Part shown: piece after piece, positions 1 through 64,000 of the stretch
Position numbering within the stretch: position 1 is the stretch's first letter
Layout of the letters: every line of letters starts with the position of its first letter
Assembly (NCBI GenBank): GCA_964187785.1
Contig: OZ076409.1
Coordinates: 78,494,001-78,558,000, forward strand
DNA from: Amphiscolops sp. MND2022
Lineage: Eukaryota
Direction of reading: 5' to 3'
Length of the DNA: 64,000 bases
The notes under the pieces: generated by a model
The model's database searches: none
What the model saw: the letters and a program-made list of their open reading frames with translations, nothing else
Told to the model about the DNA's origin: nothing
Translations under genes and position numbers: made by a program

Positions 1-719
1 ATTCTTTATTTTGAAAACGCAGATCCAAGGCAGTTTGCGGTTGTCTGCCGTGGAAAAGGAGTGATGGCGTGCAACCAATCGTACGATGAAAGGAGATGTT
101 ATGAACGAAAACAGCAGAATCAACATGTTTATGCCAGTTATTAGTCGCACTCTGGTCATACAATTTCAAGTGGTTTTTCAAGCCAGAGTGATTGCGTTCA
201 AAAACACCCATCGTTTGCGGATGGTTGACAGTGGCAAAAACTAATTTCATTTCTAGAAGCTGGCACATTTTTTTCATGAGCTTTGATGTAAAATTTGTTC
301 CCATATCTGACAAAATTGTTGTCGGCAAGTATGAGTGTTTCATGAAAATTTCGAAAAGCGCTTTAGCCACTGACTCCGCTGAAGCAGAGGAACAGCAAAC
401 ATGTATTTACTGAACACGTCTATTGCAGTTAAAATGAATTTATAACCTCCTGACGTTGGTAGTTGAACAACCATATCGACTTGGAGAAGATCTCCGGGAA
501 ACGCTTGTTGTGTGGCTACTGACTGCAATGTGGTTTCAAGGAAGCGTTGTTTGGTGGCTTCACTTGGAGACAAGACGGGCAATTGCGTATGTAATCTTCC
601 AAAAAGTCGAAGAAATTCGGAAAATAGAACAATTGCCTGAATTTTTCTACCGTTTTTATGATTCCAAGATGACCAGCAAATTTGCTGTCATGCAGACGGA
701 AAATCAATTCTGTACGCAA
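1..719 (-). pseudogene. Gypsy integrase fragment (frameshifted)
   Basis: HDSKFAGHLG...CPSC zinc finger (516-719); DLLQVD...LTAIDVFSKY (340-582); downstream IVSDMGTNF and HPQTMGVFER catalytic motifs in another frame. Confidence 0.88.
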
Positions 720-806
720 ATGGCTCGGAACAACAAACTGGCGTGTAAAATTTCGTCCCGTTTGGTCAAAAAATTTTCTGTACAGTACGCCATTTTGGAT
801 TTCTAG

Positions 807-2660
807 TCAATTGGCTTGTTTGCAGAGTTTTTGGAGTTCAATGTTCAAATAACTAAGGTCGTTAGGTAGTTTTGTTCGTAACCAGTGCACTATTTTACGA
901 TTGTTCGGATCTTTTTGCTGTTCTTGTTTCAGGTTCAGCGGTTCAACTGAATTAGCCATTTCGAATTTATCCAATCGGTTCACAAATTCTAGCGCATTGA
1001 TAGAAAACTGATCTTGGTTCAAAAGTTGATGAAAGTTTTGATCTTCACAGACAATATTGAGGGAATTGTCTGGAGATTTTAGGGCCAAATTGAAATCAAC
1101 TTCACACGCGGGAATTTTGGAGGCATATTTCAATTCTAATTTGGTGTGCGGATTAATGTGCATTCTCGATAGATAGTCCGCTGCTAAGTTTGCTTTTCCA
1201 GGTATGTGTCCCAATATGAAATTGAAATTTAGGACATGGTCAACACAAGACCACAAGCTAGACGGGATAGTTTCCGCCTGGAAGAATCTTGTGAGACTTC
1301 TATTATCAGTCAGTACAATGGTCGGTTTTGAACTTTCCCACAAAATGTGTGCGAATGAGTCGAACGCAAAATGAACTGCCAAGAACTCTTTAGCATAAAT
1401 TGACAGTTTCAAGTGAGTGGGGTTGAAAATTTTGGAGCCGAATGATACCGGTAAATACTTTATGACTGTTTTTCCCGCCTGATCTTCCAGATAATCCTCA
1501 ATCATTAAAACAAAGCCCGCTGCGTAAAAACTTGCATCAGCCATAATTACATATTGTTTATGGGGCTGAAGCAATCGGAGGGCCGTGTCACATGATTTGG
1601 CCAAATCCGTTTTCAGAGTTTCAAATGTATCATGATGCTCTTTTGTGAATTGGATTTCTTGATTGTTGCGTAGAAGAGTGTAAAACGGTAATAACCTTTT
1701 GCTAAGTTTCGGTAAAAATGCTCTGTAGTATTGGAAAAAGCCGATGAAAGGCCGAATTTGTTTCGGTGTTTTGGGCATTTTTGGACTTCTCAGAAAATTC
1801 TCAACTTTTTCTCGATTAGGGGACGTTCCTTGGGTTGTGATGGAACTTCCCAAGAATTGTATTTCGGACAAATCAAATTCACACTTGTGAACGGTCAGTT
1901 TTAATCCTGATTTACGAATACACTCAAAAATACGTCGCAAATTGTCCAATAGTTCTTCAAAAGTATGGGCTGCAGTACCCAAATCATCAACGTATTGAAA
2001 ACATTTGTCTTCCGCTATGCAAGCGTCAAGGTACTTTCGCATGAAGGAACTAAAGGCGCTCACAGACCTGCTCAGGCCTTGTGCTAGCCGAATAAAAGCA
2101 AAGGTTCTGGAGAAAAAATTAAACGAAAGCAATTGTACTGATTGTGCATCCGCTAAGCGTACTGCAAAATAGGCTTGGCTGCAGTCTGATTTCGCAAAAA
2201 GTTTTTTTCCTGCCAAATGAGCGCTGGCGTTGGCCAATGTTGTTATGGGAAAATTGTTTGAATCATAGTCATGGCGGATAAGGTGATTCACACGTCTAAG
2301 ATCAATCAGAAGGCGCAGCGCACCTGAAGGTTTTCTTTGAGCAAACAACGGACTCGAGTATTTGGAATACGGCAAAGTTGTTATGACACCGTAATATTGC
2401 ATCAGGGCCAATTCAACAATTAAATCCTCACGTAAATGGATCGGAGTTGGAGGTCCCTGTGTATACATCGGTTTTTCGTGCTCAGGGGTTAGTTTTACAG
2501 TAAAATCAGTGTTTCCTCCAATATCCAAGCGATGTCTTGAGAAAATATCATTGAATTCGACTAAAAGTTTTTCAACTTCAATTTTCTCCATTTCCGATAG
2601 AACTGATTGATCCCATTTAAATTTGCTCAAAAATTTTGTTCGCGATTCTGGGTCCTTCAA
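807..2660 (-). CDS. pol: Gypsy pol: reverse transcriptase + RNase H
   Basis: 617-aa ORF with LRLLIDLRRVN, AQGLSRS, FQYVDD, ADASFYAAG, TDNRSL and HIPGKANLAADYLSR. Confidence 0.93.
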   Translation of the reverse strand: MKDPESRTKFLSKFKWDQSVLSEMEKIEVEKLLVEFNDIFSRHRLDIGGNTDFTVKLTPEHEKPMYTQGPPTPIHLREDLIVELALMQYYGVITTLPYSKYSSPLFAQRKPSGALRLLIDLRRVNHLIRHDYDSNNFPITTLANASAHLAGKKLFAKSDCSQAYFAVRLADAQSVQLLSFNFFSRTFAFIRLAQGLSRSVSAFSSFMRKYLDACIAEDKCFQYVDDLGTAAHTFEELLDNLRRIFECIRKSGLKLTVHKCEFDLSEIQFLGSSITTQGTSPNREKVENFLRSPKMPKTPKQIRPFIGFFQYYRAFLPKLSKRLLPFYTLLRNNQEIQFTKEHHDTFETLKTDLAKSCDTALRLLQPHKQYVIMADASFYAAGFVLMIEDYLEDQAGKTVIKYLPVSFGSKIFNPTHLKLSIYAKEFLAVHFAFDSFAHILWESSKPTIVLTDNRSLTRFFQAETIPSSLWSCVDHVLNFNFILGHIPGKANLAADYLSRMHINPHTKLELKYASKIPACEVDFNLALKSPDNSLNIVCEDQNFHQLLNQDQFSINALEFVNRLDKFEMANSVEPLNLKQEQQKDPNNRKIVHWLRTKLPNDLSYLNIELQKLCKQAN

Positions 2661-3286
2661 AGGATCCAGTTTTTCCTTTTGTTTTAGCTGAGATATTTCA
2701 TCAAATATGCGTTTGCTATTCCTGTTAAAGCTTCAGGATTTTCACAGGTTTCCGGAGTCGGAAACCAGAAAGTATCCAGAGATGGAAAACCCATCTCAGG
2801 GTAGTCTGAGGTGGCAATATGTTCATTAATACTCTCATTAACGTGTTCGTTTATTAGTTCTGGACTAATCGGTTGCAAAAACTGGGCTTGCTGTGGTGAT
2901 AACAGAGAAACTTTTGCTACCAAAGTTCCTTTGGGAACTGTTATTACTGTAGATTGCACATTCAGAAAACCGATAGGGGTTTTACGTTCTGAATCAGGCA
3001 GCCTATGCTGCTAGTTAAGCATAGCCCTGTTTTGCGTTCGAAGTTTGGTAGCGGTTCGACAATGGCATTAGTACCAATCGGTAAATCATCAGAGGTTAGT
3101 TGACAGGAGAACACCTCCTGACAATTTGGACGAATAACGAGTTTTTCTGTTGTTTTCAGATAAATTTTTTTCTTGGAGTAAGTTTTCTTGATTTTACCGG
3201 TCGGTGACGATATTTCATTAAGCTGTTAGGTCATATCAGGCAACGATAATGTTCTAGTTTTGGGATGTATTGTGATATTGTTACGC

Positions 3287-3640
3287 TCAAAAAAAAGGAA
3301 GACCCAGAATGGGGCGGTTCATTCGAGGTAAAATCAAAAAAGATTCTGTAAACTTTTGTCCACCGAGAGAAAATGAAAGTTCCACTTTACCAAGTGTGGA
3401 TACTATATTTCCGTTAGCGACTTTAACTTTAGTTTGTTCCTCAGACTTGGAAATTATCGCGGTAGGATTTTTTGATTCAATAGGTGAAATAAAATGAGGG
3501 GTTATAGCACTAGAAAATGCACCAGTATCGACAGGTGCGGCTATTTTAGTGTCGTTAAGGGCTATGGGGACGCAGAAAAGGAAACAAGAAAAAGAAGAAG
3601 AAAAATAATTAAGAGAATGATGCTGGTGTGACTCACCTAC
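3287..3640 (-). pseudogene. Gypsy aspartic protease domain
   Basis: APVDTGAFSSAI...VANG...ILGLPF motifs, in a different frame from gag. Confidence 0.85.
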
Positions 3641-4664
3641 TTTTTGACTGCTGTTGATAGGGCAGCTGTGCTCCATGTTGAGGATTAGGCTTCGTGGGGC
3701 ACTGTTGTGCTGTATGGCCAAAAGAATTGCAGTTTCGGCAATGGCGTTGATTGGAGTAGGTCATATCTTCATTGGGGTTTGGGCCTCTGTAGTTGCCTCG
3801 GTTGCCTCGCCAACCTCGATTGTTGCCTCGATAGCCTCGATTGTTTCCTCGATAACCTCGATTGTTGCCATACCATCCTCTATTATTCCCATGGGATGGA
3901 TGCTCAGTTTGCCAGGGATAAGGATACCAGTGACGGGCAGGTCCTTGAGAGAGAGCTGCTATCTGATTCGTCATGTTGTTCACTTGTTGTTGAAGAGTTG
4001 TCTGCGCTTTATTTAAACTATTCAAAGCCGTGGCAACTGCATCCATTTGAGTAGACGAAACCTCATTGAAAGCTGTATCTGGATCTTCTTCTAGATACAG
4101 CTTATCCAAAACATTGCGTCTTGACACTTTTTCGCACAACTCATCAACTGGCATGTTATCTGGTTGTGTCAAAAGATAGCGTTTGAGCTTATTTGGTAGG
4201 CCATTAATAAACGCTTCTCGCACTCGACGCGTGCGTTCATTTGCGCGATTTTCTGCAGGGACTGCTGGTCGCCCTCCTGCAGCTGTCACTGCGGCCACGT
4301 CTGGAAAACTTTCGCCTGCAAGTCGTTGAAGTTCCGTCAGAAAATCACTCGCTGTTACTTCCTCTGGTTTGAATTTGCGTGAATGAAAAACAATTCGTTT
4401 CAGCTCTTGTCTCTGTGGGTTAACGTATCTTTGGCGTAGCGCTGCTATTTCCAAATCACAATCTTGGCGAGTTGCCGCTGGCATTTGGTCAAAATAGGCA
4501 AGAGCTCCGCCTTCAAGATGTAGGTGTAAGTAGAGAAGCCGATCTGCATCAGCAATGCCAGCAACTCCAATTGAGCTGGTTAATTGTCGCTCGAACTCAT
4601 CGAAATTCTCAGTTTCTAGACCCTTAAAAGGTTGAATATTCACAATCGGTTGAATATGTGCCAT
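3633..4664 (-). CDS. gag: Gypsy gag
   Basis: 343-aa ORF with PFKG, FINGL, GNNRG repeats and a CRNCNSFGHTAQQC zinc knuckle. Confidence 0.88.
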   Translation of the reverse strand: MAHIQPIVNIQPFKGLETENFDEFERQLTSSIGVAGIADADRLLYLHLHLEGGALAYFDQMPAATRQDCDLEIAALRQRYVNPQRQELKRIVFHSRKFKPEEVTASDFLTELQRLAGESFPDVAAVTAAGGRPAVPAENRANERTRRVREAFINGLPNKLKRYLLTQPDNMPVDELCEKVSRRNVLDKLYLEEDPDTAFNEVSSTQMDAVATALNSLNKAQTTLQQQVNNMTNQIAALSQGPARHWYPYPWQTEHPSHGNNRGWYGNNRGYRGNNRGYRGNNRGWRGNRGNYRGPNPNEDMTYSNQRHCRNCNSFGHTAQQCPTKPNPQHGAQLPYQQQSKSR

Positions 4665-4930
4665 TTGTGGAGAGTGAATAATTTATGTTTATTTCAGATT
4701 GCAGGTATGAGGAGAGATTTGCAGTTTCAAAACTATCGAAATTTTTAACCAATCGATTCCGGAATAGACTTAAGACTCGAAGAATGCTGTCATTGAGACT
4801 GTGTGAAATTTTCAGGTTTGTAGCTACAATAGTCTTGCCAGGAGTTTGGTTTTCCTGACCCAAGATGCGAGTTTTGAGAATTTTCAATCTTGAGTTAACT
4901 CTAGTGGTGGATTCGAGTTTCAGTACTTTT

Positions 4931-5430: not shown

Positions 5431-5993
5431 GGAGCACCATATTCCTAATAAGAACGTGCAGCTTTTATGAGACATTGAAGCTCAATTTCCGATAGTCGAA
5501 TCAGTATTCCAGGCAATTCAAATCCTGATTGATTAATCCCGTTGTCCGAATGCCTCTCTGGTGTTGACAGCTGGTTTCCTTTGTCCGACAAACAACAAAC
5601 AAACAAACATAGCTAAGCAGCGCGGAAAACGTCCGAGGAACAGTGTCTACGATTCAGTGTTTCAACATAGGGAATGAGCATCACTTGGCTTTGGACGTCA
5701 TTCCTCTTTGCATTTATCAGATTTTCAGAATTGGATCGTCGTCATCAATCAGCGTTTCTTATAAAACGGCTCTGTATTCATCATGTGCCCCCAGCCCGGG
5801 CGGCAGACAAAAAATCCAACCAACTTAGGAAACATATAAGAAAACAAGGGAAGGATCATGCAACCAGAGAGTTCAATGGACCCAGGAGAAATCTCAATTC
5901 AGAAACTCAAAGAGGCATGTGAAATGGTACCGATTACGAAGCAAAGAAGACATATATTTCTCAATGAAAGAAAACGGACATTAAAACGCGGAT

Positions 5994-6632
5994 TTACAAG
6001 TAGTAAAGTTCGCTTAAGTGGTCTTCGTCCCGAACCGTTCCAACTACACTGGCCGCATTGCCTACCTGGATTGCGAGAGAGAGTCTCTGCCTGAAAAACG
6101 ACCCAGCTCTATTTTCTTGATTGCACACGCACAATTTTTTACAGAGGTTTTTCAAGAAGGTAGACGTGGAAGGTCCGACTCCTCCCTGAATTTCAAAGGC
6201 TTATGGTTGGAAGATGTATCCTTTGTCAGTCAAACAAGCGTACTTAGCCGTTTTCAATTCCTCTGCATCCTCCGCTGCTGTGCCTGGGTTGGCAACAGAC
6301 TCGTTCTCTATTCTACTGGGGGCGAGAAGATCGACTCAAGTAACATCCCAGACTAATTGCTTGCCTTACTCCCAGGGCGCTAGGGTAATTCCATCTGGGC
6401 GCTTTCCATCTGTTCGGGTCAGACCATATGGTTCCAAAATTGAGGGAACTTTGATGGAACTCAGCGCCTGTTTCACGAGAGTATTGAGGTTGTGGTGCCT
6501 CGAGAAACGTCCCGCGCTTCTGGCACAGGAAAGATCATGATGTCCGTTCTCTTCGACAAGTTTACCACAGCGGCAAGTGTGTTTCTCGCAATTTTTCGAA
6601 CCCAGGCGGAGGGATAAGGAGACTCTTTGCAT
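5994..6632 (-). pseudogene. 3' fragment of an RLE-type (CRE-like) non-LTR retrotransposon, copy 1
   Basis: CRCG..HHDLSC, SRHHNLN, GKRPDG, WDVT, K..KY, FEIQG and LSLAIQVGNA motifs with in-frame stops. Confidence 0.85.
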
Positions 6633-7198
6633 TTAGACGTTATTCCTCAGACGTTATTCAAGCAAACCGCAAAGCAAGCAGAATTTATTCTTGAATATGA
6701 ATAGGGTATTGAGCCAGATAGACACGAGACAAGGGCCAAAACCGGAAGAACAATAGTCTAAGAAAAAACGCTAAGCTCAGCTTCGAAAGGTTTTAAGGCA
6801 AGTGAGCTTAGGGGATGAGACGCCAGTCTCGAAAAGCCCTGTCTGCAAAAGTTGCTTGCTTTTTGTGGAGGGCTTTCCTTGGTATAAACAAAAACGTGAG
6901 AAACCAACCTTCATTCGTAAACAAAGAACTGAACAAGGTCAACAAATTGAGAACAAAAAGATTCTCCATCTGAAAGAAACGTCTTTTGAAAATCTAGACT
7001 AGAAATCTTCATATTTTTGTTCAGTCATTATTGATCATTTTTTTACTGGTGCCTGGATGGCATTCCCGTCAAAACACTTCTGACATGATTTCAAAATCTC
7101 CATTAGATTTCAGACCGAGCGTTACTAGATTCACATATTGTTTCAAACATTCGAGCAGCATTCGAAGACCGAGATTGAGCTCCAAAACATCAACCAAA

Positions 7199-7360: not shown

Positions 7361-7981
7361 GGGGGATTACATGATCAGGGCATCAACGGCCGAAGCTAAG
7401 TTGATTCAATTTTTGTTTCCATCAGCGCAAAAACTACTACGTCAATATCTGAGCTTTTTCCGAAAACCATCAAAGTCTCTGTTCCTTTAGTTCTCAAGGA
7501 ATTTTTCACCTCTCTCAGATATCATGGATCTTCGTCATCAATCAAGTGCCATGTGTATCATGTTGGGGGGAGAAGACACACACCCGTGGTCTGCAACGAA
7601 AGTAGGGAACCCCATACCAGCCACTATCCCAGTTGACCGGCAGAAAATTTCTAAAGCTGCAATGATTTAGAGGTTTAAAAAAATAAGGTATATGTGATAA
7701 ACAACTTCGAACGCAACTCTGTCGCTCACAGTTCCTGGAACACAGGCCGCGTTGCCGATCTGGAGAGCCATTGAAATTCGTTGCTTCAATAAGCTGCCAG
7801 CTCGTTGATCGTCGTGCGAACGACAGAGCATTTTACAGAGGCGCGTAATGAAAATTTCACTGCTCTCGCCTGAAGAACCCTGAACTTCTAAGGCCACCGG
7901 TTGAAAAATGTATCCATTGTCCATTAATTCGCGATACTTCTCAATTTTACGCGCTTCAGCCTCGGTGGCGGTGGTTCCCGG

Positions 7982-8518
7982 GGTTACCAGTCACTTGACT
8001 TAATACCATTTGGCTTAATTTGTTCGTCGAGTCATTTGGCTGAAAAATTTTAAGCCAAGTGACCAAAAAATTAAGCCAACTCCATTCCAACTCAAGGAAT
8101 AAATATGTCAACTCTCGGAAATATCATAATGTGGGGCATATGCGGTGTATGCACGCTCGCCCTCACCGTCGCAAAGACCAGCTCCCACTACGATCGCTTC
8201 GCGATCTTCGTTCCCGCTAGGTCTTTGCTCCTGTTCGACCTCGCTTAGCAAGATGGGAATATGAGCGGCCCCTAGAGGAAATGGGGACATATCCGAGGGG
8301 TACTTGATATGACATGTTATAATAATACGCTACTACGCTATAAATATAAATTCGACAAAATCTGCCACGTGTTTTAACTATGTGGTTTTAAGTCAAATGA
8401 CTATAGGCCAAGTGACCAATACCAGAGACATTTAGCTTTAAAAATTAAGCCAAGTGACCAATTGTATTAAGCCAAATGACTTTAAGCCAAATAGTATCAA
8501 GCCAAGGGACCCTTTACC
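7982..8518. mobile_element. MITE A (AAGCCAAGTGACC-repeat arms, shared core)
   Basis: ~37-bp imperfect TIRs starting GG (ggttaccagtcacttgacttaata.. / ..tagtatcaagccaagggaccctttacc); flanks gttcccgg / gttttcgg. Confidence 0.75.
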
Positions 8519-8526
8519 GTTTTCGG

Positions 8527-8834
8527 GGGGTGGGCGGAGTTAGTCCTCAGGTCGACATACCAAATTTTTGAATGGGATCGAAACAACTCGGATCGAAATT
8601 TTTATAACGTAGTCAGATATGTTCACATACCCCTAGTGCCCTGAATGCAAGAGCGAAGCGACGTGCCATATGGCCATGCCTCAATGTTGCTACTTGGCGA
8701 AGGGAGCGAAGCGACCGAGCCATACAACAAATACGATAAAATTCGACCGCATTCTATTCGATCCCTGCAATTTGATCAAAAGGTTCGACCTCTGTCCTTT
8801 CGACAAGAAAAATTTGACCGATTTACAGCCACAA
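8527..8834. mobile_element. Degenerate MITE A2 (GGTCGAA/TTCGACC arms; diverged core in reverse orientation)
   Basis: Inverted ggtcga/gatcga versus ttcgacc motifs. cagatatgttcacatacccctagtgccctg resembles the reverse complement of the core in MITE B. Confidence 0.55.
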
Positions 8835-8989
8835 GTTCCCGGGTTGCATAAAGAGCCTTGATTCAGACGGCTGGGTGCAAGAGCATCCACAACTGTGACA
8901 TCCCACACCAGCTGTTTACCCATTTACCAATGAATCATGGTAACACCGGCTGCGCGTTTGCCAACAGTTCGGTACAGTATTAAATAGTT

Positions 8990-11900
8990 TCATATTTGAA
9001 ATGGTCAAAGGCATCGGCAAGGGTGGCAGTTTTCATTGTGGGATGCAGCCTGGAGATGCACCTTACTGAAGTGTGTACTGGTCTTACATCGGTGGCCATT
9101 AATGGAATGGATTCCGGACGTTTCGGCAAAAAACGTTTCGGCAAAAACTTTGCGGCGGACGTTTCGGCAAAAAAATATGCCGAAACGTCTCAGGCTAAAA
9201 ACATTTGCCGAAACGTTTCGTATGATATTTGGGGCACATCTGGTGTATGCACGCTCGCCCTCACTGTCGCAAAGACCAGCTCCCACTACGATCGCTTCGC
9301 GATCTCGGTTCCCGCTAGGTCTTTGCTCCTGTTCGACCTCGCTTAGCAAGATGGGAATATAAGCGGCCCCAAGGGGCCGCAGGGCACTAGAGGAAATGGG
9401 GACATATCCGAGGGGTACTTGATATGACATGTTATAATAATACGCTGACTACGTTATAAAGATAAATTCGACAAAATCTGCCACGTGTTTTGAACTAAGT
9501 GGTTTTCAGTCGAACGACTTTAAGCCAAGTGACCAATACCCGAGACACTTAGCTTTAAAAAATTAAGCCAAGTGACCAATGAAGCCAAATGACTTTAAGC
9601 CAAGTGACCATTTACCACCAGTTTGTAGAAAACCAAAAACAAAACCAAAAGAAAACGGGACGTTTCGGCATGAAAAATTTGCCGAAACGTCTCGAAGTTT
9701 TTTTGCCGAAACTTTTTTGCCGAAACGTCCTATTCCCAATAGAATCAAGGCGCTCGGTGTGTGTGTCGTTCTTTTCTGTGACGAGTGTGTGGCTACCCAC
9801 AGGCGTGACAGAGTCCTGGAGGCCATTAACACCCAAAACCTTCAAGATAAGTACCAATTTTCCGATCTTGAAGCGAAATTTGAAAAAAATTGAGAAAAAA
9901 AATGTCTCTGATGATGGAAATGAAATTGAACTTGTCTGAAAAATCTCTTACAAAGGTTATTGAGAGGAAAGTACCCTCCGGTTCAAAAGCTGAGATACCA
10001 AACCATAACCCCAAAAAGGTTGATCACGACACCAACAAAAGTCTGCGAATTCAGGGTATCCCTGAGGATTTTGATAAACCAGCCAAAGAGAATATCCTAC
10101 TGACAAATGAAAAACTGAAAGATGTTTTCAATACACTGGGAGTCACCAATCCAATAGTTAATGTGAAAAGACATGGAAAATTTGACAATTCTGGATCAAA
10201 GCCCAGAACAATAATGATTGAAGTGTGGAATGAATGGGAAAAACGAACAATTTTTGCCGAAAGTATCGAAAAACGAACAGAATTGATGAACAAAAACAAC
10301 TACCTTTTACCAGCGTTAACGAGAAAGTAAGCGTTCAAAGAACATGCATGCTTAGTTGAAACTGGAGTCACCAGGAGTGCGCTCAAAATAGGAAATATTG
10401 AAATCTACCAAGATGATGTCAAAATTGAAATAACTCCTACCGCCGAGTCACTATGTTCAATGAACATATTAGTCCTGAATGCAAATAGCTTGATAAATGA
10501 AGATAGGCGCAGAGAATTCTCTGCTGCTGTAGTTGGAGGTAGTTTTCTAGCTGCATGTGTTAGTGAAACCTGGCTTCATTCAAATATCTCTGATAAAGAA
10601 CTTTTTCTTGGAACTTATGAGCTTTATCCAGCCGATAAGCGCTCTAGAGAAGAGAACATATCTAATCATGGTGGATCACTTATTGCTGTATCTAAAAGTC
10701 TTTCTTCCGCAAAAATTGAGCACATATTTTCCCAGCGTTGTGTTGCAGTCGAAGTTACTATACACAACGACAAGCTGATTATCTGTACATTTTACAATCC
10801 TCCTAAAGAAAGCGTGTAGCGATACACTGTAAGTGATTTCGAATTGATGTTAACATTGTCAACGAGATTCCAAAAAAACCAAATACTTTTTCGTGGAGAT
10901 ATAAACTTCCCCCAGACAAATTGTAATAGTTTTCATAGTGAAGATGATTTTGAGAGAGAGGTCCTGGATCTTTCTGACAAACACTGTCTACAGCAAGCAG
11001 TAACTAATTCAACTTGCGGGAAGAACACTCTAGATATTGCCTTACACAGGAACCTCTCAGTACTATGCGAAGAAAATCATATTCTTGAAAAATTGTACAA
11101 AATATCAAACCATACTCCTTTTGCCCTAGAATTGAAATGCCCATATACATACAACAAACTGCTACAAAGACTGCGTACAGTTTCAATGCTGCTTATTAAG
11201 AAGAAGTATTAAAGATTTTGGAAAATTCTCCCTTCGAGCCGACTTGTTACTCGAACATAGATAACATGGTAAACGAATTTTATGTTTATCTCAATGATAT
11301 TATTGAAAAATGTGTTCCCCGACGAACGACTCATAGACAAACGTTACCAAGTTGGTTCATTTCTAAGACCTCTCACTTGTTGAAAAAATTTGAAACACAG
11401 AGGAAATTACTGAAATTGAAACCAACTGCGTACCGCAAACAAAAGATTAAAACACTGGAATCCGAGTTTTGGAAATCGAGCGAGTAAGAAAAAATTGACT
11501 ATCAAACGGAAATTGCAGAAACAAGAAACACTGATTTGATGTTCAAACATTTCAAACGAATGAGTAAAGAGTCTGCTCTTCCTTCAACTGTTGTTCTGAT
11601 CGGACAAGGGACAAGAGTCTAACAGCGTCAAAGAAACATTGAATCTTTTCAATAATTACTTCCAATCTGTTTATTCGCCGAAAAACAAGTCACTAAGTGA
11701 TATTTATTGCAAAGACCCAAAAACAACAAATTTTGACACAGCAGTTTGTACTATCCGAAAGTATCTCGACGATTTGGATGAGACCAAATCAGGAGGCCCT
11801 GATGGTAGTCCGCCTTTGATCATCAAAAACATGGCTGCACCTCTGAGCAAAGCACTCAATCTTATCTTCAGAAATATCAAAAGACAGAAAAGAACACCAA

Positions 11901-13350
11901 AAGTGTGGAAAAATAGCGGTGTTTCATCTAGTCAGAAAAAGTCTAGCAAGAAAGATGTGTCAAATTATCGACCCGTAGCAATACTTGATATATTCGAGAA
12001 AATCTTTGAAAAGTGTCTGTATTCGTCTATCTACGGCTGTTTTTCAGACCAAATAACTTCTTCCCAACATGGCTTTGTAAAGAACAAGTCTGTCGAATCA
12101 AATTTGCTTTCTTTTTTTACCGAAAAGTTACAATAGCTATGATGACTCAACAACTAAATCCATTATTGCATTGTATGCAGACATGGCGAAAGCTTTTGAT
12201 AAAGTTCCTCATTATGAGTTAATTCAAAAGGTTTCTAAAACAGGAATTGGTGGATGTCTACTAGAGGTTCTCAAAGATTATTCAACAGATCGATACCAAA
12301 TTGTCCGTTGTGGCAATGAACGCTCTGATCAACTTCTCATAACAAGTGGAGCACTGCAAGGGTCTGTTATTGGACCGTTAATGCTTCTCATATTTATCAA
12401 CGATCTACCGGAATATTTATTCTATAGTGAACCTTTTTCGTATGCTGACAACCTCAAAACCATAGTGATTAACAACAAAGAAATGTTTCAATTAGACCTA
12501 GATAACCTTACTAAATGGGGAGTGGAAAAGAAAAAATCTTTTGCTGTCAAGGACCTAAAATGTTTTATGGTTACATTCCGAGGCACAACGGAAGAACAAT
12601 TCTATTTGAGTAACTTACCTCCCCTGGGATTTACATCTGCCAAAGATATTGGATTGATGGTAACTAGTAATTTATCATGGTCAACCCATATTAAAAGCAA
12701 AATGTGTAGAGCCAACACAGTTTTCTTCTTTATCAAAAGGAACACCTCCGCTACACAAAAATGAGTCAGGCTAAATTTGTTTAAATCTATGTTACTGCCA
12801 ATTCTGTCATTTGCTTGTTGCTGCTTCAGACTTTCCACAGCCAGTTTGAAATTACTGTAAAATTTCCCGAAAAGAGTCCTCAAATGGGTATGCCGTGACT
12901 ATCATTCGACTCACAAAGATCTTTTCTTAAAATGCAATCTTCTACCAGTCCCTATGTTCTTCCAACTAAAGAACCTACTATTCCTATCAAAATATTTTCA
13001 CGAAATGCGGTTCACGGGGTAAGACTTGAGTATTACAACAGTGTCTAAAAAGGGCAGAATGATGTTTGGTATAAAAACTGCCTGTACTGAGAAAGTTCTG
13101 TTTCATGACGTGCCGAGTTGCAAACAAACTTCCGAAAGAGTTGCATTTTTCGAATCTTTGGGACTCAAAAATAGAATTCTGGACTTCATGTAGCAATACT
13201 TTCACCAGCTCTATCTTGAAGATCAATTGTGCACCTACCAAATATACTGTGACTGCCATAACTGCCGAAACACAACTAGGATATTCTGATAACAACCGTT
13301 GGGGAGAAGTCCCTTCAGCCTAGCTGTAAAGTCACTACAAAAACAACAAA
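8990..13350 (+). mobile_element. Near full-length decayed CR1/L2-group LINE (ORF1 PHD/RRM-like, APE endonuclease, RT)
   Basis: ORF1 LRIQGIPE. APE: LNANSL, VSETWL, GGSLI, YNPP, GDIN, NTLDI. RT: GPDG, NYRPVAI, QHGF, DMAKAFDKV, QGSVIGP, YADN. C-terminal CDCHNC and an ACAACAA-like tail. Many frameshifts. Confidence 0.9.
9109..9737. mobile_element. MITE B (GCCGAAACGT-repeat arms, shared core) inserted in LINE ORF1
   Basis: GG-N5-GGACGTTTCGGC TIRs; 8-bp TSD aatggaat/aatagaat. Removal restores the LINE frame (AINGIKAL). Confidence 0.85.
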
Positions 13351-13769
13351 GTCCACGCGGTTTGAGCACTGAAGGCAAGTCGAGAGAACCCAACGACTGC
13401 TTTATGAGAGAATTGAGTGTAGACTGTACTTATGAACTTCAGAGTTATTTTAAAAATTTCCTCTAGCATGAATTGTCGGTTTATCGAATTGAAAGCGTTT
13501 TCAAGTCAACTTTCAAAATTAGGTTTTGTTTGGGCTGAGGGCTTCCTATCAAACAACGGAAAATATGTGAGGTCTATTCAACATCCTTTTCGGTGCCTAC
13601 ACCTACTTGTCGATTTCCATATCTTGCTTGAGGTTATTCGAAGACATGGTATCCGGCGGACAACCGGCGGAAAGTATTGCCTACAGCAAAAAAACGAAGT
13701 CCTCCATCGGACTTTTTAGCGCTATTAGTTTCGCATCAAATAAAGATCAAATAAAGACGGCCATTCGTA

Positions 13770-14792
13770 TCAAGGGAACTGTCAAAAACAGCGTCGCTGA
13801 TTCCATTCCTTCGTTAGTGATGTTGTCGGTGGCTAGAGGAGGGAATGACGTCTAAGGAATTACCTCAAAAGGTCCACCGGGAAAAACCTCTAAAAGAATA
13901 ACATCTAAACTGAAACATTGGGAATAACCTCAAAAGTTTACCGAAGAAAAACGTCTAAAGGAATAACATCTGAATTAAAATTCTAGGGAACAACGTCTAA
14001 AAAACGGGAAGAAGTTTTAAACAGGGGATTACCGTCTAGAAAGAGGAATAACGTCTAAAATTGGGAAACGTCTATTTCGGAAAAATGTCCGAAAAATCAA
14101 AAAACCATCATTATACGTCTGAGAAACAGGAAAAACGTGTAAGATTGGGAAAAACGCCTGAAAGATCCAAAACTCTTTAGAATACGTCTAAGAAACGGAA
14201 TAACGTCTAAAATTTGGAAAATTCAAGTCAATACTGATCTAAAGGTAAAAAGTGATTTACACTGTAAAACGTGTCTCGGATATGTCCCATTTCCTCTAGT
14301 GTCCCGCGGCCCCAAGGAGCCGCGGGACACTAGAGGTAATGGGACATATCCGAGACACGTTTTATACTTCAAATCACTTTATACCTTTAGATTAGTATTG
14401 ACTTGAATTTTCCCAATTTTTGACGTTATTCCGTTTCTTAGACGTATTCTAATGATTTTTGGATCTTTCAGGCGTTTTTCCCAATCTTACACGTTTTTCT
14501 GTTTCTCAGACGTGTGATGATGGTTTTTTGATATTTCGGACTTTTTTTGATTTACACGCTTCTCAATTTTAGACTTTATTATCTTTTTAGAGGGTATTCC
14601 CCTGTTTAGACTTTATTCCCGTTCTTTTTAGACGTTATTCCCTGAAATTTCAATTTAGAAGTTATTCCTTTATACGTTTTCCCGGTGGACCTTTAGACGT
14701 TATTCCTTAGACGTCATTCCCGCATCTGGCCACCGAAAACGTCACTAACGAAGGAACGGAATCAGCGACGCTGTTTCTGACAATTTCCTTGA
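13770..14792. repeat. ~1 kb foldback palindrome derived from MITE C (AGACGTTATTCC arms)
   Basis: The two arms are reverse complements around a centre at 14314-14315 (gtcccgcggcccc-aa-ggagccgcgggac). Confidence 0.9.
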
Positions 14793-15399
14793 GGACTAGA
14801 GGAACATAGACTTTGATGGTTTACGCAAAAATGCTCAGATTTTGACGTAGTAGATTTGGCGCTGAAGGAAACAAAATTTAAATGACTTTAGCTTCGGTCT
14901 TTGTTGATGCCCCGATCATGTAATCCCCCATTGGAGAAAAAGATATTGTCCAAACGTTATTCAAGGTTTACAAAAGAAGGGAAGTTACATGACGGACTTC
15001 AAGATCAAAAACGTCAAGCTCTATTACAAAGGAACCCCAGTTACCGTTGATACATCGAGACAAACATCGATCTGACTGAACTGCAAATCGTATTTTTCTA
15101 TACTCAAACGTCCTCAAAGTTCAAAAGTCTTTTTACCTTCGAAACTTCTCTAACTTCACACTTTCTCGTACTTAATATTGGGCCTCAGGGTCAAGACGGA
15201 AGCAGTAGATCTTTTGGTAGCAGTAGAATATCAGAGCGGCTCAACACTCGAGAATATCTCTTTCAGACATTGTTTTTTTCTGTTCTCTGCTGTATTTTGG
15301 ACACTGCACTGAGTTTTTTAACCTCAAATACGCTTATCCACCCTCTACCCATGGCTGCAAAGTCGATGTTGCGCAAGACATAGCACTTGTACATGCAAA

Positions 15400-15960
15400 A
15401 CAGAAGAATTCTACAAACTGGTCCTAGGTAATGCAGTTTGTAGAAATTTTTTCTACAAACTGGATCAATAACATTTACAAACCGGACATCCTTTACACAA
15501 GACCCTGAGAGCTCCACTGCCTAAGATCTAAAGGAAAAAGATGCAAAACTGAAAGGTGGGACATCTCCAGTGTATGCACGCTCGCCCTCACCGTCGCAAA
15601 GACCAGCTTCCACTACGATTGCTTCGCTATCTCTGTTGTCTAGGTCTTTGCTCCTGTTCCCCCTCGCTTGGCAAGATGGCAAAATAAGCGTCCCGAAGAG
15701 GCCGCGGGCACTAGCGGAAATGGGGACATTTCGAAGGCACGTTTTTTACTTTGCATCATTCCTACATTATTGATCTTATTGTTTTTTTCTGCATTGATGA
15801 TTTACAAACTGTTTTTCTACAAACTGGCCGGTTTTTCTACAAACTGGTTATAAAAATATAACCATGGTCCAGTATGTAGAAAAAAAGTTCTACAAACTGG
15901 ACCTCATTTTTCTACAAACTGGAGTCTACAAACTGGTTTTCTACAAACTGGTTCCATACC
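15400..15960. mobile_element. MITE D (CTACAAACTGG-repeat arms, shared core); left end eroded
   Basis: Many ctacaaactgg repeats; right terminus reads GG-N5-AACCAGTTTGTAG on the minus strand; core at ~15557-15740. Confidence 0.75.
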
Positions 15961-25710: not shown

Positions 25711-25771
25711 TTTTTACAAATTCTGCCAAATCTCCACTTTTATACACTCCATTAAGTAAAACGATAAACTA

Positions 25772-26752
25772 CCCGGGTTGACCTCTTACTAGCATCTTGG
25801 TTGTCTTGGCAAGATCTTGCCAAATTCTTACTACATCTTGGCAGCCATTAAGATCTTACTAAGATAATACTTATTCCAAGATCGTATCTTATCACGTTGG
25901 ACAAAATTTTAAGATTATAAAAAAACACTATACCTTCGGTACAAGCAGCCAAGGCTCAATCTAAATGCTCATTTCACCCAACAACGACTATTTCTACTCG
26001 TTTTCATAATCAAAATGCTTAAACCTGCTGCAAAAATTTTGCATGCAAAAATGCGTGAATAATTACGACAACGTATTCTGGCTTCCGAACTTTTGACGAG
26101 AATTCTAATAAGTCCTCACCTGTTTAAGACTGAGAAATGCGAATGTACCAAATGAAAGGTAATTTCAAGGGCTTTCCAAAACTTGTAATTTATCACTCTT
26201 GTCGATTCCAGAGACGGAGAAATATGCTCTCAAACGTCCAGACCCACTATCGGAAAGTTACAAAGGAAAGACCTTAAAATCCGGAAGTTTTTGTAGAAAC
26301 CATATTTCCAGCTTTCTTTGAGCCTGTTTCAGCAGCCTTATTACTGCTAGAAACAGCGGTCATTGCACTAATTTGGGTAATGATTCAGCTCAAGTCTTTT
26401 CTGACGCCGTTGTTGGCGGATAGTTTTGCAATTGAAAGAACAATTTAACCAGCCTTCCTAAAAAATATCTCTTCAACCAAATTTTATACAATGCTAACAG
26501 AAGTTTTAATGTCTAACAATATAAATCTGCAGAAATGTTGATTTTTGTTGACTTCTTTTCAGATTTTTTTCTTTCCAAATAGGATTTTACAATAAAAGTT
26601 TTCTTGGAAACATGGCTCTCTTGATAAGATCTTACCATGACATCTTGCAATTCTTGCCAATATCTTGACAAGATCTTAGCTAAGATTTTTCCAAGATCTT
26701 GGCAAGATCTTGCCAAGGTCTTACTAATATATCTGTGGAAGGCCGACCCGGG
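25772..26752. mobile_element. MITE with CCCGGG termini, TA target duplication and CAAGATCTT subterminal repeats
   Basis: ta|cccgggttgacct...aggccgacccggg|ta; both arms carry cttggcaagatcttgccaa. Confidence 0.8.
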
Positions 26753-26754
26753 TA

Positions 26755-26875
26755 GTCACCGTGGCACGTTGGTAGTGTGTCTGACTGCCAGGCACGAGGT
26801 CATGGGTTCGAACCCGGGCTCGAGAGTTACTTTTTTATAGCGGAAAAAATCCCGGTGCTCATCGGACGTCTTGAT
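26755..26875 (+). repeat. tRNA-derived SINE-like element
   Basis: A box TGGCACGTTGG, B box GGTTCGAACCC, then tcccggtgctcatcggacgtcttg, which is shared with 29585-29700 and (reverse strand) ~57255-57285. Confidence 0.65.
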
Positions 26876-28091: not shown

Positions 28092-28540
28092 TTTTAGTCG
28101 GCGCTTTCGAAGAAAGAGCAGACTATAGTATTGACTTTTCTTTTCAGTAAAAATGCTTGACTCTTACAGTGACCTTTTTTCTTCGGACCGCAGAACTCAC
28201 ACTGATCGGTCCATTTTTAACAGAAACTACTAAAACTACTGAGGCCACGTCCGGCCAGCAGAAACTTAATGCAAAGGTTTCCCCCTTTCATTTTTTAAAA
28301 CTTTTTCAATGTTACCTACAAAACCGGACAACACTAAATGGTCCATTGGAGTCTCCCCTCGTAATATCCGAATTGAAGCGCTATATCCGAATTTCTGACG
28401 ATATATCCGAACTATATTGTGTTTTATTAAGGAGGAGGCGGAGGTTCGAAAACAGAAATTTTCCATGAAAACGTGCTACGGATATTTTAAAAACTGCGCT
28501 TTTTGAGCCTTAGATATAGCGCCGACGTTCTCGTCTTGTT
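28092..28540 (+). mobile_element. Helentron/DINE-1-like non-autonomous element (HINE)
   Basis: 5' TTTTAGTCGGCGC subTIR plus a partial IR; 3' GCGCCGAC subTIR, ending CTTGTT. Confidence 0.65.
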
Positions 28541-29443
28541 TTTCATTTTTAAGATTGACGATTTTAAAAGTTTTATAAGCTGTTGCTTAGTACCTTGTAC
28601 CCTCTACTGCCACTTGGCGCAGAGATTAATCCGGATTTTTTGAGGTCTGAGAAGCAGAAGGACGTGGGTTCGAGTCTTGCAATCGACTTAAGTTTTTTCA
28701 TGTTTGTTATTTCGGCTTTTCGAGATTTTTTTCGAAAATTTGTAATGTTTCAAATGGGTCCGCTTCATTTTTTTGATATTTTGAGCAAACTGGATTTTCA
28801 AATTTTTCTGACCTTTTTTCTTCAGACCGCAGAACTCACACTGATCGGTCCATTTTTTACAGAAACTACTAAAACTACTGAGGCCACGTCCGGCCAGCAG
28901 AAACTTAATGCAAAGGTTTCCCCCTTTCATTTTTTAAAACTTTTTCAATGTTACCTACAAAACCGGACAACACTAAAGGGTCCATTGGAGTCTCCCCTCG
29001 TAATATCCGAATTGAAGCGCTATATCCGAATTTTTGACGATATATCCGAACTATATTGCGTTTTATTAAGGAGGAGGCGGAGGTTCGAAAACAGAAATTT
29101 TCCATGAAAACGTGCTACGGATATTTTAAAAACTGCGCTTTTTGAGCCTTAGATATAGCGCCGACGTTCTCGTCTTGTTTTTTATTTTTAAGATTGACGA
29201 TTTTAAAAGTTTTATAAGCTGTTGCTTAGTACCTTGTACCCTCTACTGCCACTTGGCGCAGAGATTAATCCGGATTTTTTGAGGTCTGAGAAGCAGAAGG
29301 ACGTGGGTTCGAGTCTTGCAATCGACTTAAGTTTTTTTCATGTTTGTTATTTCGGCTTTTCGAGACTTTTTTTCGAAAATTTGTAATTTTTCAAATGGGT
29401 CCGCTTCATTTTTTTGATATTTTGAGCAAACTGGATTTTCAAA
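28170..29443 (+). repeat. Near-identical tandem duplication, unit 639 bp
   Basis: 28170-28802 matches 28809-29443 with only a few substitutions and indels. Confidence 0.95.
28605..28690 (+). repeat. tRNA-like Pol III promoter module (copies at 29245-29330 +, 31061-31138 -, 60660-60730 -)
   Basis: A-box-like TGGCGCAGAG and B box GGTTCGAGTC, with a conserved tgaggtctgagaagcag middle. Confidence 0.6.
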
Positions 29444-50721: not shown

Positions 50722-51542
50722 TCACAATAAATGTCTATTTAATTACCTCAAAAACTTATTTTCTATATTCTGCCGATACCAAAAAGTAGATTTTGATTCT
50801 GTTACCAACTCAGCTTTCACCAAAAGATTCAAGTGAAAAACTATATCGATTATGAGTTCGGGTTTCTTACTAAGGAGCCCGAACTCATAATCTATATAGT
50901 TTTTCACTAGTAGTCGACACGTACATCTGATTACAGTCAATTAGCAATGACTGGTATTATGGATCCATTTGGTGCCCATTTTTTTTAGACCTGTGTAACT
51001 TTGCATAAGTTGAAATATCGAAACTCATAAAAAGTATTTCTTAGATGAATATGGCGCCTTGTATAGCAGATCGCCGTTTTCTGGAGAGTTTTCATGGAAG
51101 CAACTTACTTGTGAAATCTTAGCAAGTAAAGAATATGGTATGGTTGAATTGTGTTGAGAACGATGAAATGATGACTTTTATTGAGAGACTATCTGCGTTT
51201 GTCGAAAATGGTCTCAATCTGAAAGTTCATGCTTTCATTTTTGGGAACAGTTTCTCGAAAAGATTCACATGTAAAGGATCCTTCTAACTAATGTACCATC
51301 CAATAAATGTATTAAACCACATTAAAATCATTTAATTGGCTTCATCGCTCCGCACCCAATCCCCCTTGGGGCACATACCCGCCGCGCTAATCACAAGGCC
51401 ACGTAGCAGGAACAAATTACATATATTTATAAAATCAGTCAGTTTGCTGGAATTATACAAAGAAACGCCACTACTGTAGTCTGCCTTTTCTAACAAAAGC
51501 CCTGACTAAAAACGACAGGTACGTTACTATCTAACGTTACTT

Positions 51543-63700: not shown

Positions 63701-64000
63701 GTTAAAAAGATTCAGCAATGAAGTTGTTTTGGGAAATAAAGGCAGTTTGAAGATTGTCGAAAATCAAAAAATTTGCAGTTTTGGTACTTCATCATGTTAA
63801 TTGAGTACAATTTTCGAACAATTTTATGAGTTAGAAGCTTGAAAACAATCGAAGACGCAATAATAAGGAATCTATTTTACTTTTTTTACATCGGAGAAAA
63901 ACACAGTGTTTCACATCAGAAATGCATCAAAATGTTAAAAATTGAGTCGGAACGTAGAGGTGAATATTCCAACGTCTTTGTGCAAAGTCTGTGAGTTTTC
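60742..64000. repeat. Mirror-orientation ~184-bp array with internal palindromes and a direct duplication
   Basis: gcctcaaatt at 61143 and 61327; 60926-61729 is repeated at 63199-64000. Confidence 0.7.
62447..63016. repeat. Long inverted repeat (~270-bp arms, ~30-bp spacer)
   Basis: gttgaacgtttccattcttccaacgatg...ctggaaagatt versus aatcttcccag...catcgttggaagaatgaaaacgttcaac. Confidence 0.92.

Follow-up and report, generated by a model that had tools for sequence, protein, structure and literature searches.

Several described systems, in the parts of their publications drawn on here, come close to the locus reported below. Muta1-type MULE foldbacks of Aedes aegypti (PMC5225508, PMC5499845) start with GG, are flanked by 8- or 9-bp target duplications, carry long arms of 9-15-bp subterminal repeats (in Muta1, repeats of 12 bp and duplications of 8-9 bp; PMC5225508) and give rise to non-autonomous derivatives with mixed internal DNA; the Muta1 interior is described as variable, and the parts cited mention no cross-family module. 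Merlin/IS1016 elements (PMC8101967) similarly display 5'-GG ends, 8-9-bp duplications and imperfect TIRs, with subterminal tandem repeats in several non-autonomous families, and no shared cross-family core is mentioned in the portion cited. In heteromorphic maize Mu (PMC10401008) TIRs and internal sequences reassort between clades, the proposed routes being nested or linked elements, recombination and regeneration of symmetric arms. Rice MITEs form multimers by inserting into MITEs, Ditto being targeted by many families (PMC5172404), and MER6/MER6A (PMC6887750) carries a foreign conserved module as a passenger in a MITE. Among SINEs, Littorina Lsa_3-6 display a common middle with reciprocally exchanged flanks, and the SINE middle has been proposed to promote exchange.

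The 64-kb stretch of DNA analysed here (the window) contains non-coding foldback families that share a core of ~180 bp. On balance, we lean towards the view that this core spreads as a passenger and exchange hub and is not needed for jumping. The arrangement contrasts with maize Mu, which presents MuDR gene remnants and one related TIR family, whereas here the arm families are unalignable and the module is non-coding. It also differs from MER6/MER6A, where the donor is a known SINE and a single mariner family is involved, in that many families and two modules participate, and from rice multimers, which are described as independent nested insertions and not as family-founding composites. Core exchange would work much like SINE module swapping, although SINEs are retroposons with domains conserved across phyla, whereas here DNA transposons carry a recently spread core; our literature search found no account of SINE-like module swapping for DNA transposons. 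MITE families are classified by their ends and the interior is regarded as junk, whereas in the present case a single interior joins at least seven types of arm.

Organization of the locus

Elements A, A2 and B, together with a second LINE, are nested in a retrotransposon that itself interrupts element C (Table 1). The host retrotransposon, recovered by tblastn as pieces at 7509-7981, 8835-8992 and 13345-13769, has a 960-aa homologue with RVT_1 and PHD (P0008) and is presumably CRE-like, while the decayed LINE within it is taken to belong to the CR1/L2-like clade.

Table 1. Positions of elements, core modules and retrotransposons in the window
Feature	Position	Strand	Description
C left terminus	7361-7508	+	Severed by retrotransposon insertion; 85% to reverse complement of 14778-14929
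Non-LTR retrotransposon	7509-13769	-	5'-truncated; RT plus C-terminal region read by eye as restriction-like endonuclease (RLE)
Element A	7982-8518	+	GG ends, AAGCCAAGTGACC repeats; core copy with 17-nt deletion in terminal hairpin
Core-1 in A	8131-8296	+	Profile search and pairwise alignment
Element A2	8528-8834	+	Older foldback; GG(A)TCGA-type repeats
Core-2	8613-8735	-	Different module; common to core-1 are the 32-nt 3' signature only and, by eye, a TGTATG start
Element B	9109-9737	+	B outer arms (GCCGAAACGT repeats), 8-bp duplication
Core-1 in B	9229-9412	+	Complete; profile, folding, edge-motif scan
Core-1 features in B			Edge motif; long hairpin 9269-9326; GC hairpin 9363-9380; CTAG 9387-9390
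Short hairpin of core-1 in B	9392-9409		Overlaps second edge motif
Relics in B	9413-9637	+	A right inner part, arm and terminus (to 9616); D-motif scrap 9617-9637 (motif scan)
Decayed LINE in RLE element	9740-13344 (approximate)	+	Endonuclease and RT pieces; Pfam Exo_endo_phos_2 (weak), RVT_1
C body	13770-14929	+	Palindrome of two right halves, AGACGTTATTCC repeats
Element D	15405-15960	+	CTACAAACTGG repeats; right end intact, left end lost
Core-1 in D	15556-15735		Decayed; profile search, motif scan

In the window A is placed exactly on the left duplication of A2, and run X2 contains the true empty site of both elements (joint 7973->8835); the right end of A at 8518 is confirmed by an independent contig. 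Target duplications of 8 bp, as a sequence-only reading of this DNA had claimed, flank B (AATGGAAT/AATAGAAT, 7/8) and A (GTTCCCGG/GTTTTCGG, 6/8), but the best duplication of A2 is of 9 bp (GTTTTCGGG/GTTCCCGGG, 7/9) and none was found in the window for C (best candidate with 3 mismatches in 8) or for D, which has no recognisable left end. A second, independent B insertion is present in run X2, with an inferred 8-bp duplication at a site equal to 8899-8906.

B is a Russian doll, in which the B arms surround the core, then the right arm and end of A, then a scrap of D; 9413-9616 is identical to A (8297-8518) at 188/201 positions. C had been placed at 13770-14792, but its right end lies at 14929 and matches the terminus in front of the retrotransposon. 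C really spans 7361-14929, a palindrome pivoting on the last core hairpin. Its left terminus shares a 15-nt overlap with 13770-13784 (11/15 alike), and the palindrome centre (14314-14315) lies in the loop of the core GC hairpin, between arms (14130-14313 and 14316-14499; 93%) that stand 2 nt apart.

Arms and termini

The arms are unrelated, as first claimed: 30/32 cross-family arm pairs score within 100 shuffles, the two exceptions being A2-right with both B arms, and 4/4 same-family pairs beat every one of 100 shuffles. The proposed terminal pattern of GG, five variable nucleotides and a motif is present at both ends of A and of B, at the A-type terminus nested within B and at the right end of D, but not at the C ends. 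Subterminal motifs number 5 in A, 8 in B, 9 in D and 5 in C. The left ends of A and B open with a 7-bp imperfect palindrome; their right ends do not.

With GG, 8-9-bp duplications and short subterminal repeats, these ends agree with Muta1-type MULE foldbacks or with Merlin. The duplications of A, B, A2 and the independent B insertion fall within the 8-11 bp of MULEs, the arms are long with 9-15-bp subterminal repeats, and the Merlin combination of 5'-GG ends with an 8-9-bp duplication is likewise present. The Muta1 end, GGGTCTACCCCGTTTGGC, displays CGTTT at positions 11-15 as in B and TTGGC at 14-18 as in A right ends, its first repeat and those of A and B share one register, and 8-9 of 18 positions are identical by hand count. 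In contrast, Muta1 ends are described as near-identical with a 10-bp terminal palindrome, whereas the ends here diverge from each other at positions 3-7. Mobilization probably depends on Muta1-type MULE transposases whose genes lie elsewhere in the genome, Merlin being a tentative second candidate. No transposase family was found in the 141 window ORFs or in 96 fetched ORFs, and for this reason we say only that different arms may use different transposases.

The shared core

Core-1 is non-coding and high-copy, its translation matching 852 clusters of spurious ORFs from public assemblies. In a profile search of the whole window (E<=10) five matches were obtained: one each in A (8128-8300), B (9226-9415) and D (15553-15738), plus two half copies in C (14275-14323 on the minus strand and 14306-14354 on the plus strand), which keeps the last 50 nt of the core only. 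The remaining 56 kb gave none. Pairwise identities are 157/164 (A-B), 140/162 (A-D) and 157/177 (B-D). All window copies lie within 8 kb (p ~0.006 if independent), but because this clustering results from nesting it is not counted as evidence. The claim that five elements carry one core therefore stands for A, B, D and the half copies in C, but not for A2. There, a diverged reverse core had been proposed; the profile misses A2, and its sole match to core-1 is the 32-nt 3' end, for which shuffles of core-2 against core-1 scored as well in 0/1000 cases against B, 43/1000 against A and 23/1000 against D. Core-2 also occurs with other arm families (P0013, P0055, P0288).

The core is known from one organism or close kin. 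In the ORF translations, family-level cores differ at only ~4 sites, which argues for recent spread and not deep conservation. Exact core patterns gave no matches in prokaryote genomes or viral contigs, and a single metagenome match, in a gene-dense and GC-rich contig without relation to this DNA, proved to be a 20-mer shared by chance. A 74-aa minus-strand ORF through the A-type core was rejected as a gene, with no Pfam match among the ORFs scanned and a frameshift in window A; it was treated as spurious and served as probe only.

Folding and a possible cis-acting module

The core had been called hairpin-rich. Locally this is borne out (z of -4.6, -5.1 and -2.8, in windows chosen around hairpins) except in D (z -0.4), while the whole core folds no better than its shuffles (z -0.6 and -1.5). 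Compensatory pairs in the consensus fold amount to 0/53 on the plus strand and 2/50 on the minus strand, both from the decayed D copy; an apparent pseudoknot pair with two compensatory pairs came from this single copy, with the same bases contested, and was dropped. Rfam gave no matches at gathering score, and none of 15 weak ones overlaps either core-1 copy or core-2. A tRNA-like head was sought and no tRNAs were predicted, so that a tRNA-derived SINE or known structured RNA was set aside on the tRNA and Rfam searches. An HDV-like ribozyme, tried by eye, did not fit and finds no support in Rfam, and Ginger-like TGT..ACA ends for the core had no matching duplication.

The sequence-only reading had proposed a conserved cis-functional core. 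A selected cis-acting module (protein-binding site, DNA bend or hairpin primer) that raises mobility or copy number, so that an arm family gaining it expands, would account for independent retention of the core beside seven or more left and four or more right flank types, of which several are multi-copy, and for the sharp core edges at 8133 and 9413 in DNA contigs. It would also fit the common 32-nt end of core-1 and core-2, predicted to form one short ATG-N4-CAT hairpin in all three of B, D and A2, where D and A2 differ by a two-sided change of one pair (by eye), and the position of the ~4 family-diagnostic sites outside predicted stems (by eye; chance ~0.17). We nevertheless consider such a module unlikely. 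A core-less B exists (P0101), in which B ends abut A-type flanks, as they do in P0136, P0195 and P0203; an A copy minus half of its terminal hairpin occupies two different insertion sites (window A and P0235); and C has half a core. The core-less B and the hairpin-deleted A suggest that the core is not required for jumping, and a required cis role is unsupported; the whole-core folding, covariation and Rfam results and the near-identity between families, which points to recent spread, also weigh against selection. The passenger view in turn offers no obvious reason for the retention of a complete, sharp-edged core by so many families, or for the common 32-nt end of two modules that otherwise do not align.

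Flank combinations and allele tracking

The genome-wide evidence consists of translated spurious ORFs, enriched for stop-poor, GC-rich or coding flanks and for A-type starts, and their clustering over-represents chimeras. Flank classes were set by identity and pattern rules, leaving 36/159 ORFs partly unassigned; P0307 and P0316 were removed from the 84 HMMER matches as unrelated, and P0174/P0466, P0200/P0475 and P0215/P0476 resemble allelic pairs. A free-standing core would speak against a modular arrangement, and none occurs among the 120 best core ORFs, where a repeated family flanks the core in 118 by rule and in 2 by eye, in a sample of translated ORFs that favours A-type flanks.

The core occurs in mixed flank combinations. 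The B-left junction is found with A-type right flanks (3 ORFs) and with C/D-type right flanks (4 ORFs), and three other left types occur with two right types each. At the DNA level, run X2 presents B-left, core and a D-type right flank, while the window presents B-left, core and an A-type right flank. Owing to these reciprocal combinations core and arms are not congruent, and the modular view of one core among many arm families is upheld. The allele near the right edge goes with the right flank: of the ORFs scored P or L, P is present in 6/6 with a C/D flank but in 4/100 with an A flank (p=1e-7). The middle allele goes with the left flank (E in 67/84 against 3/19, p=3e-7). Such linkage also follows from shared descent, exchange being needed only for the reciprocal combinations. 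The material exchanged beside the core consists mostly of relic inner flank, with matched outer arms added around it.

The core might instead be nothing special, merely the middle of the very abundant MITE family A, with random nesting and deletion having placed copies in other families. A-type flanks do dominate both sides (80/120 and 96/159 ORFs), a bias partly built into the ORF sample because the A flank supplies the start codon. Precedents exist in the parts of the literature cited, multimers making up >10% of 6,600 rice MITEs (PMC5172404) and MULE derivatives often holding foreign internal DNA (PMC5225508). However, most junctions fall no more than a few bases from one or other core edge, which is unexpected if nesting is random, and reciprocal combinations, edge-tracking alleles and palindromes on core hairpins are left unexplained, making this account distinctly unlikely.

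Core edges and rolling-circle elements

Helitrons begin with TC, insert between A and T (or TT) and present a 3' hairpin ~10-12 nt before CTRR. Core-1 in B resembles this in that the final base of CTAG lies 10 nt beyond the 18-nt GC hairpin (9363-9390), a feature that is weak in D and absent in core-2. Both core edges carry a ~12-bp direct repeat (10/12, 9/12 and 10/12 in A, B and D; shuffles as good in 5, 55 and 4 of 1000) and hairpins are present, recalling the short terminal direct repeats and right-end hairpin of Replitrons (PMC10288648). A small rolling-circle element of HUH type, Helitron- or Replitron-like, inserting by itself in the middle of foldback MITEs is nonetheless very improbable. 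CTAG is followed by A, C or G and never T (6/6 window copies), whereas Helitrons insert in AT or TT (PMC10288648), and the left TC is present in some families only. A Helentron or HINE is disfavoured by flanks that are not T-rich and by the lack of an 11-15-bp subTIR pair, which neither inspection by eye nor the list of the 25 longest inverted repeats revealed. Several left flanks are found with one and the same right flank, and the alleles go with each edge separately, unlike a block inserted into many targets, and the 120 ORFs hold no free-standing copies. Replitron hosts are given, in the part of the source cited, as plants, algae and protists, and no HUH Rep partner was found among the window ORFs. 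The core may still be the relic of a rolling-circle element captured once.

A proposed route of exchange

Returning to the passenger and exchange hub, we infer a mechanism of three steps from the directly observed core, flanks, relic arms, empty site and 8-9-bp duplications. In the first, elements of other families would insert at or inside the core; once matched outer ends flank it, the transposase of that family could move the composite, and later deletion of inner ends would leave Russian dolls such as B. This step is suggested by the 14/202 core ORFs in which a core piece lies no more than 10 codons from an intact terminus of A, A2 or B, a count in which several insertions share one junction and may represent a single amplified composite. 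It is further suggested by P0255, where B-left arm and core are followed by a complete mini-B at the right edge, as predicted for an intermediate; by P0266, with another B end at the same right edge; by the position of A on the A2 duplication; and by one X1 contig in which an A end is followed by core-2-like letters.

In the second step, near-identity over 180 bp would permit crossovers or template switches within the core, recombining left and right flanks; the reciprocal combinations, the edge-tracking alleles and the two B-left cores of run X2 and the window point to it. A bolder version, which we hold to be possible but doubtful, regards the core as a selfish hub, a hairpin module that draws the transposases of many foldback families to its edges, recombines and folds back to mint two-ended elements, and outlives each transposase family. 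If true, DNA transposons would possess in it an equivalent of the CORE-SINE domain, accompanied by a second module, core-2, sharing its 3' signal and by a retrotransposon sharing its landing sites. Whether SINE central domains are selected or hitch-hiking is still debated; with edge insertions, recombinants and fold-backs visible as intermediates, this one genome makes both that question, for shared central domains, and the birth of new MITE families testable. Clustering by core or by arms will decide whether a repeat library for this genome lumps or splits these families.

In the third step, a broken or nascent strand would fold back on itself at the core hairpins and copy one arm, producing palindromes such as C. 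Consistent with this, the centre of C lies in a hairpin loop, and P0243 and P0285 are palindromes that turn at core hairpins.

Elements and ends

From its protein-kinase and ion-channel exons, together with LINE pieces and a gypsy-like LTR element, the window is recognisable as DNA of an intron-bearing eukaryote; its GC content is 38%, and its repeat types may resemble those of acoel flatworm genomes. The foldback elements A, A2, B, C and D within it belong to a real, high-copy and modular system of non-autonomous DNA transposons. The sequence-only reading had proposed one core shared between unrelated arms, and a profile of this core (core-1) matched A, B, D and, as two half copies, C, with no match in the window's other 56 kb. 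Core identities are 157/164 (A-B), 140/162 (A-D) and 157/177 (B-D), and 30 of 32 cross-family arm pairs align no better than shuffles. The termini of GG, five variable bases and the motif described in that reading were also seen, at the ends of A and B and at the right end of D, which has lost its left end. The left arms of A, B and D carry their repeat in both orientations, so that each is a small foldback by itself.

The 8-bp target duplications claimed earlier stand for B (7/8 match) but none was detectable for C. Two sequencing runs, X1 and X2, were compared with window positions 7950-9800, and two X2 contigs are best interpreted as the two termini of a separate B insertion, which has an 8-bp duplication. 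A and A2 are flanked by three near-copies of one site, and a further X2 contig, running from 7973 straight into 8835, displays their empty site. B, previously taken as a single element, has its own arms and duplication but also contains the right arm of A together with its terminus (188/201 identity) and a scrap of D. The boundaries of C had to be redrawn, the element being broken by a non-LTR retrotransposon (RLE, named for a region read as a restriction-like endonuclease) in which A, A2, B and a second LINE are in turn nested.

Coordinates of features in the window
Position	Strand	Feature	Remarks
1-4700	-	Gypsy-like LTR retrotransposon, used as control query	gag knuckle, protease, RT, RNase H, integrase; several broken frames
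5717-6623		RLE copy	within C-motif repeats; 13-bp flanking direct repeat, 5704-5716 / 6623-6635
7361-14929		C	
7509-13769		RLE copy	within C-motif repeats
7982-8080		Left arm of A	
8613-8735		Core-2	two GCTTCGC mini-hairpin motifs
9109-9220		Left arm of B	
9269-9326		Long hairpin of core-1 in B	
9392-9412, 14335-14354		Right edge of core-1	resembles outward-pointing GG + 5 nt + motif; exact in C
15411-15490		Left arm of D	
25730-26745		Probable further foldback element	repeats TCTTGCCAAGA at both ends; without core-1
26760-26830		tRNA-like SINE head, by eye	motifs similar to A and B boxes; no tRNA called there by ARAGORN
28170-29443		Duplication, 635 bp, 98.6%	recent, or assembly artefact
40308-43403	+	1031-aa open frame without Pfam match, immediately preceding protein-kinase exons	probably a single long exon of a kinase gene
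44389-47374		Duplication, 1494 bp, 99.8%	recent, or assembly artefact
50832-50908, 62261-62430, 62447-63016		Long palindromes	88-91% arms; without core-1
60929-64000		Duplication, 801 bp, 99.5%	recent, or assembly artefact

Anatomy of the cores

Core-1 (~180 bp, 59% GC) comprises, in order, a ~12-bp motif, the long hairpin, an 18-nt GC hairpin, a CTAG ending ten bases beyond it, and a short hairpin that overlaps a second copy of the ~12-bp edge motif. This edge repeat was matched or beaten by 5 (A), 55 (B) and 4 (D) of 1000 shuffles. Local hairpins are strong in hand-picked windows, folding of the entire core is no different from that of its own shuffles, and no Rfam or tRNA match was found for the core. 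Its right edge, whose motif is like that of B at 8/11 positions, may be a relic terminus. A2, described earlier as a reverse core copy, carries a different module, core-2, which has in common with core-1 only a 32-nt end bearing the same short hairpin. Core-2 is joined to A2 arms and to at least two other arm families (ORF entries P0013, P0055 and P0288), and is a second swappable module.

Core copies and flanks beyond the window

Translations of the core and the adjacent retrotransposon served to retrieve spurious ORF predictions from ENA assemblies that belong to the same organism or a close one. Of 855 candidates, 852 match a single core reading frame; the best 120 of these 852 clusters hold about 645 sequences (hand sum), indicating over 1,300 ORF-bearing core copies, which may span more than one haplotype or assembly. 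The start codon comes from the A flank, which biases the sample, and flanks are readable only to the first stop; by rule, 80 of the best 120 clusters have A-type flanks on both sides. Among the best 120 plus 40 cluster members, 159 of 160 were classed (left/right; letters other than A-D are labels coined here): A/A 96, B2/CD 6, B/CD 4, B/A 3, 'stop'/A 3, 'stop'/CD, B2/A, N/A and H/A 2 each, N/G, G/A and G/G 1 each, and 36 partly unassigned. A second core frame (82 ORFs, after removal of two unrelated matches) adds left flanks D and F and right flank F. DNA contigs concur, the core ending at 8133 (left) and 9413 (right) before new, C-type or D-type flanks. No free-standing core occurs among the best 120 clusters of this A-flank-biased sample, and core and arms are not congruent, one B-left junction being followed by an A-type right flank in some ORFs and by a C/D-type one in others.

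Proposed movement of the core between families

The end products suggest a three-step route. Elements of other families would first insert at core edges: an intact A, A2 or B end lies within 10 codons of a core piece in 14 of 202 core ORFs, and further edge junctions are visible by eye for families not present in the window, although some junctions recur and may stem from one amplified composite. In entry P0255 a B-left arm and core are followed by a complete mini-B at the core's right side, and the outer ends consequently form a matched B pair. Exchange within the core may then recombine flanks. Core alleles correlate with the flank closest to them (p about 1e-7 and 3e-7), and the window's B has a non-A middle allele and an A-type right allele. 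Finally, fold-back could occur at core hairpins; C consists of two right halves joined inside the GC-hairpin loop, and P0243 and P0285 likewise turn at core hairpins.

TIRs and internal DNA reassort in maize Mu (PMC10401008), SINE flanks are reciprocally exchanged round a common middle (PMC4758252), MER6 has a passenger module within a MITE (PMC6887750) and rice MITEs target other MITEs (PMC5172404), with further background in PMC10288648, PMC4067079, PMC6446971 and PMC4079207. The arms behave like those of Muta1-type MULE foldbacks, in which transposase binds subterminal repeats that raise excision (PMC5225508, PMC5499845); Merlin likewise fits the ends (PMC8101967), and the elements may belong to either group. 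A literature search, with most subscription papers outside it, revealed no eukaryotic DNA-transposon families with unrelated arms round one core. Further comparisons are offered by sea-urchin TU elements and by models of fold-back MITEs.

Is the core required?

The architecture proposed initially was largely right, but its functional claim, a conserved cis-acting core swapping arms to use different transposases, is unproven. That the core is required for or enhances mobility appears unlikely. In favour of a function, many families keep it whole and sharply bounded, and the two cores have the 32-nt hairpin end in common; against a requirement, a core-less B element reads through in P0101, and a 17-nt deletion breaking A's GC hairpin, which might be recurrent, is also present in P0235 at a different insertion site. 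The core is therefore probably not required. The cores of the families differ at about four sites, far below the decay differences between copies, implying recent sharing. The hairpin plus CTAG agrees with an independent rolling-circle element, but the AT or TT target, the subTIRs and free copies do not, making this reading very improbable; a Helitron-like end, captured once, is a possible origin of the core.

Association with the RLE retrotransposon

The elements associate with RLE. Of 112 ORFs retrieved with the RLE C-terminus alone, 14 run into A, A2, B or core, at many positions. None of 120 gypsy ORFs does so, these being the best of 413 and from copies possibly younger or of other species; length-matched, the counts are 14/110 versus 0/54 (p=0.005). 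Conversely, nine of the 202 core ORFs run into RLE and none into gypsy, and all three X2 contigs (3/3) pair RLE with such an element. The two kinds of element may target each other or occupy a common compartment. The make-up of the gypsy set speaks against a specific preference for RLE, as does the finding that RLE adjoins just 4 of 26 B/B2 ends with visible flanks. The others adjoin other MITE parts (5), lie near such parts (2) or have unassigned flanks (15), several of which are, by eye, other LINE or gag ORFs.
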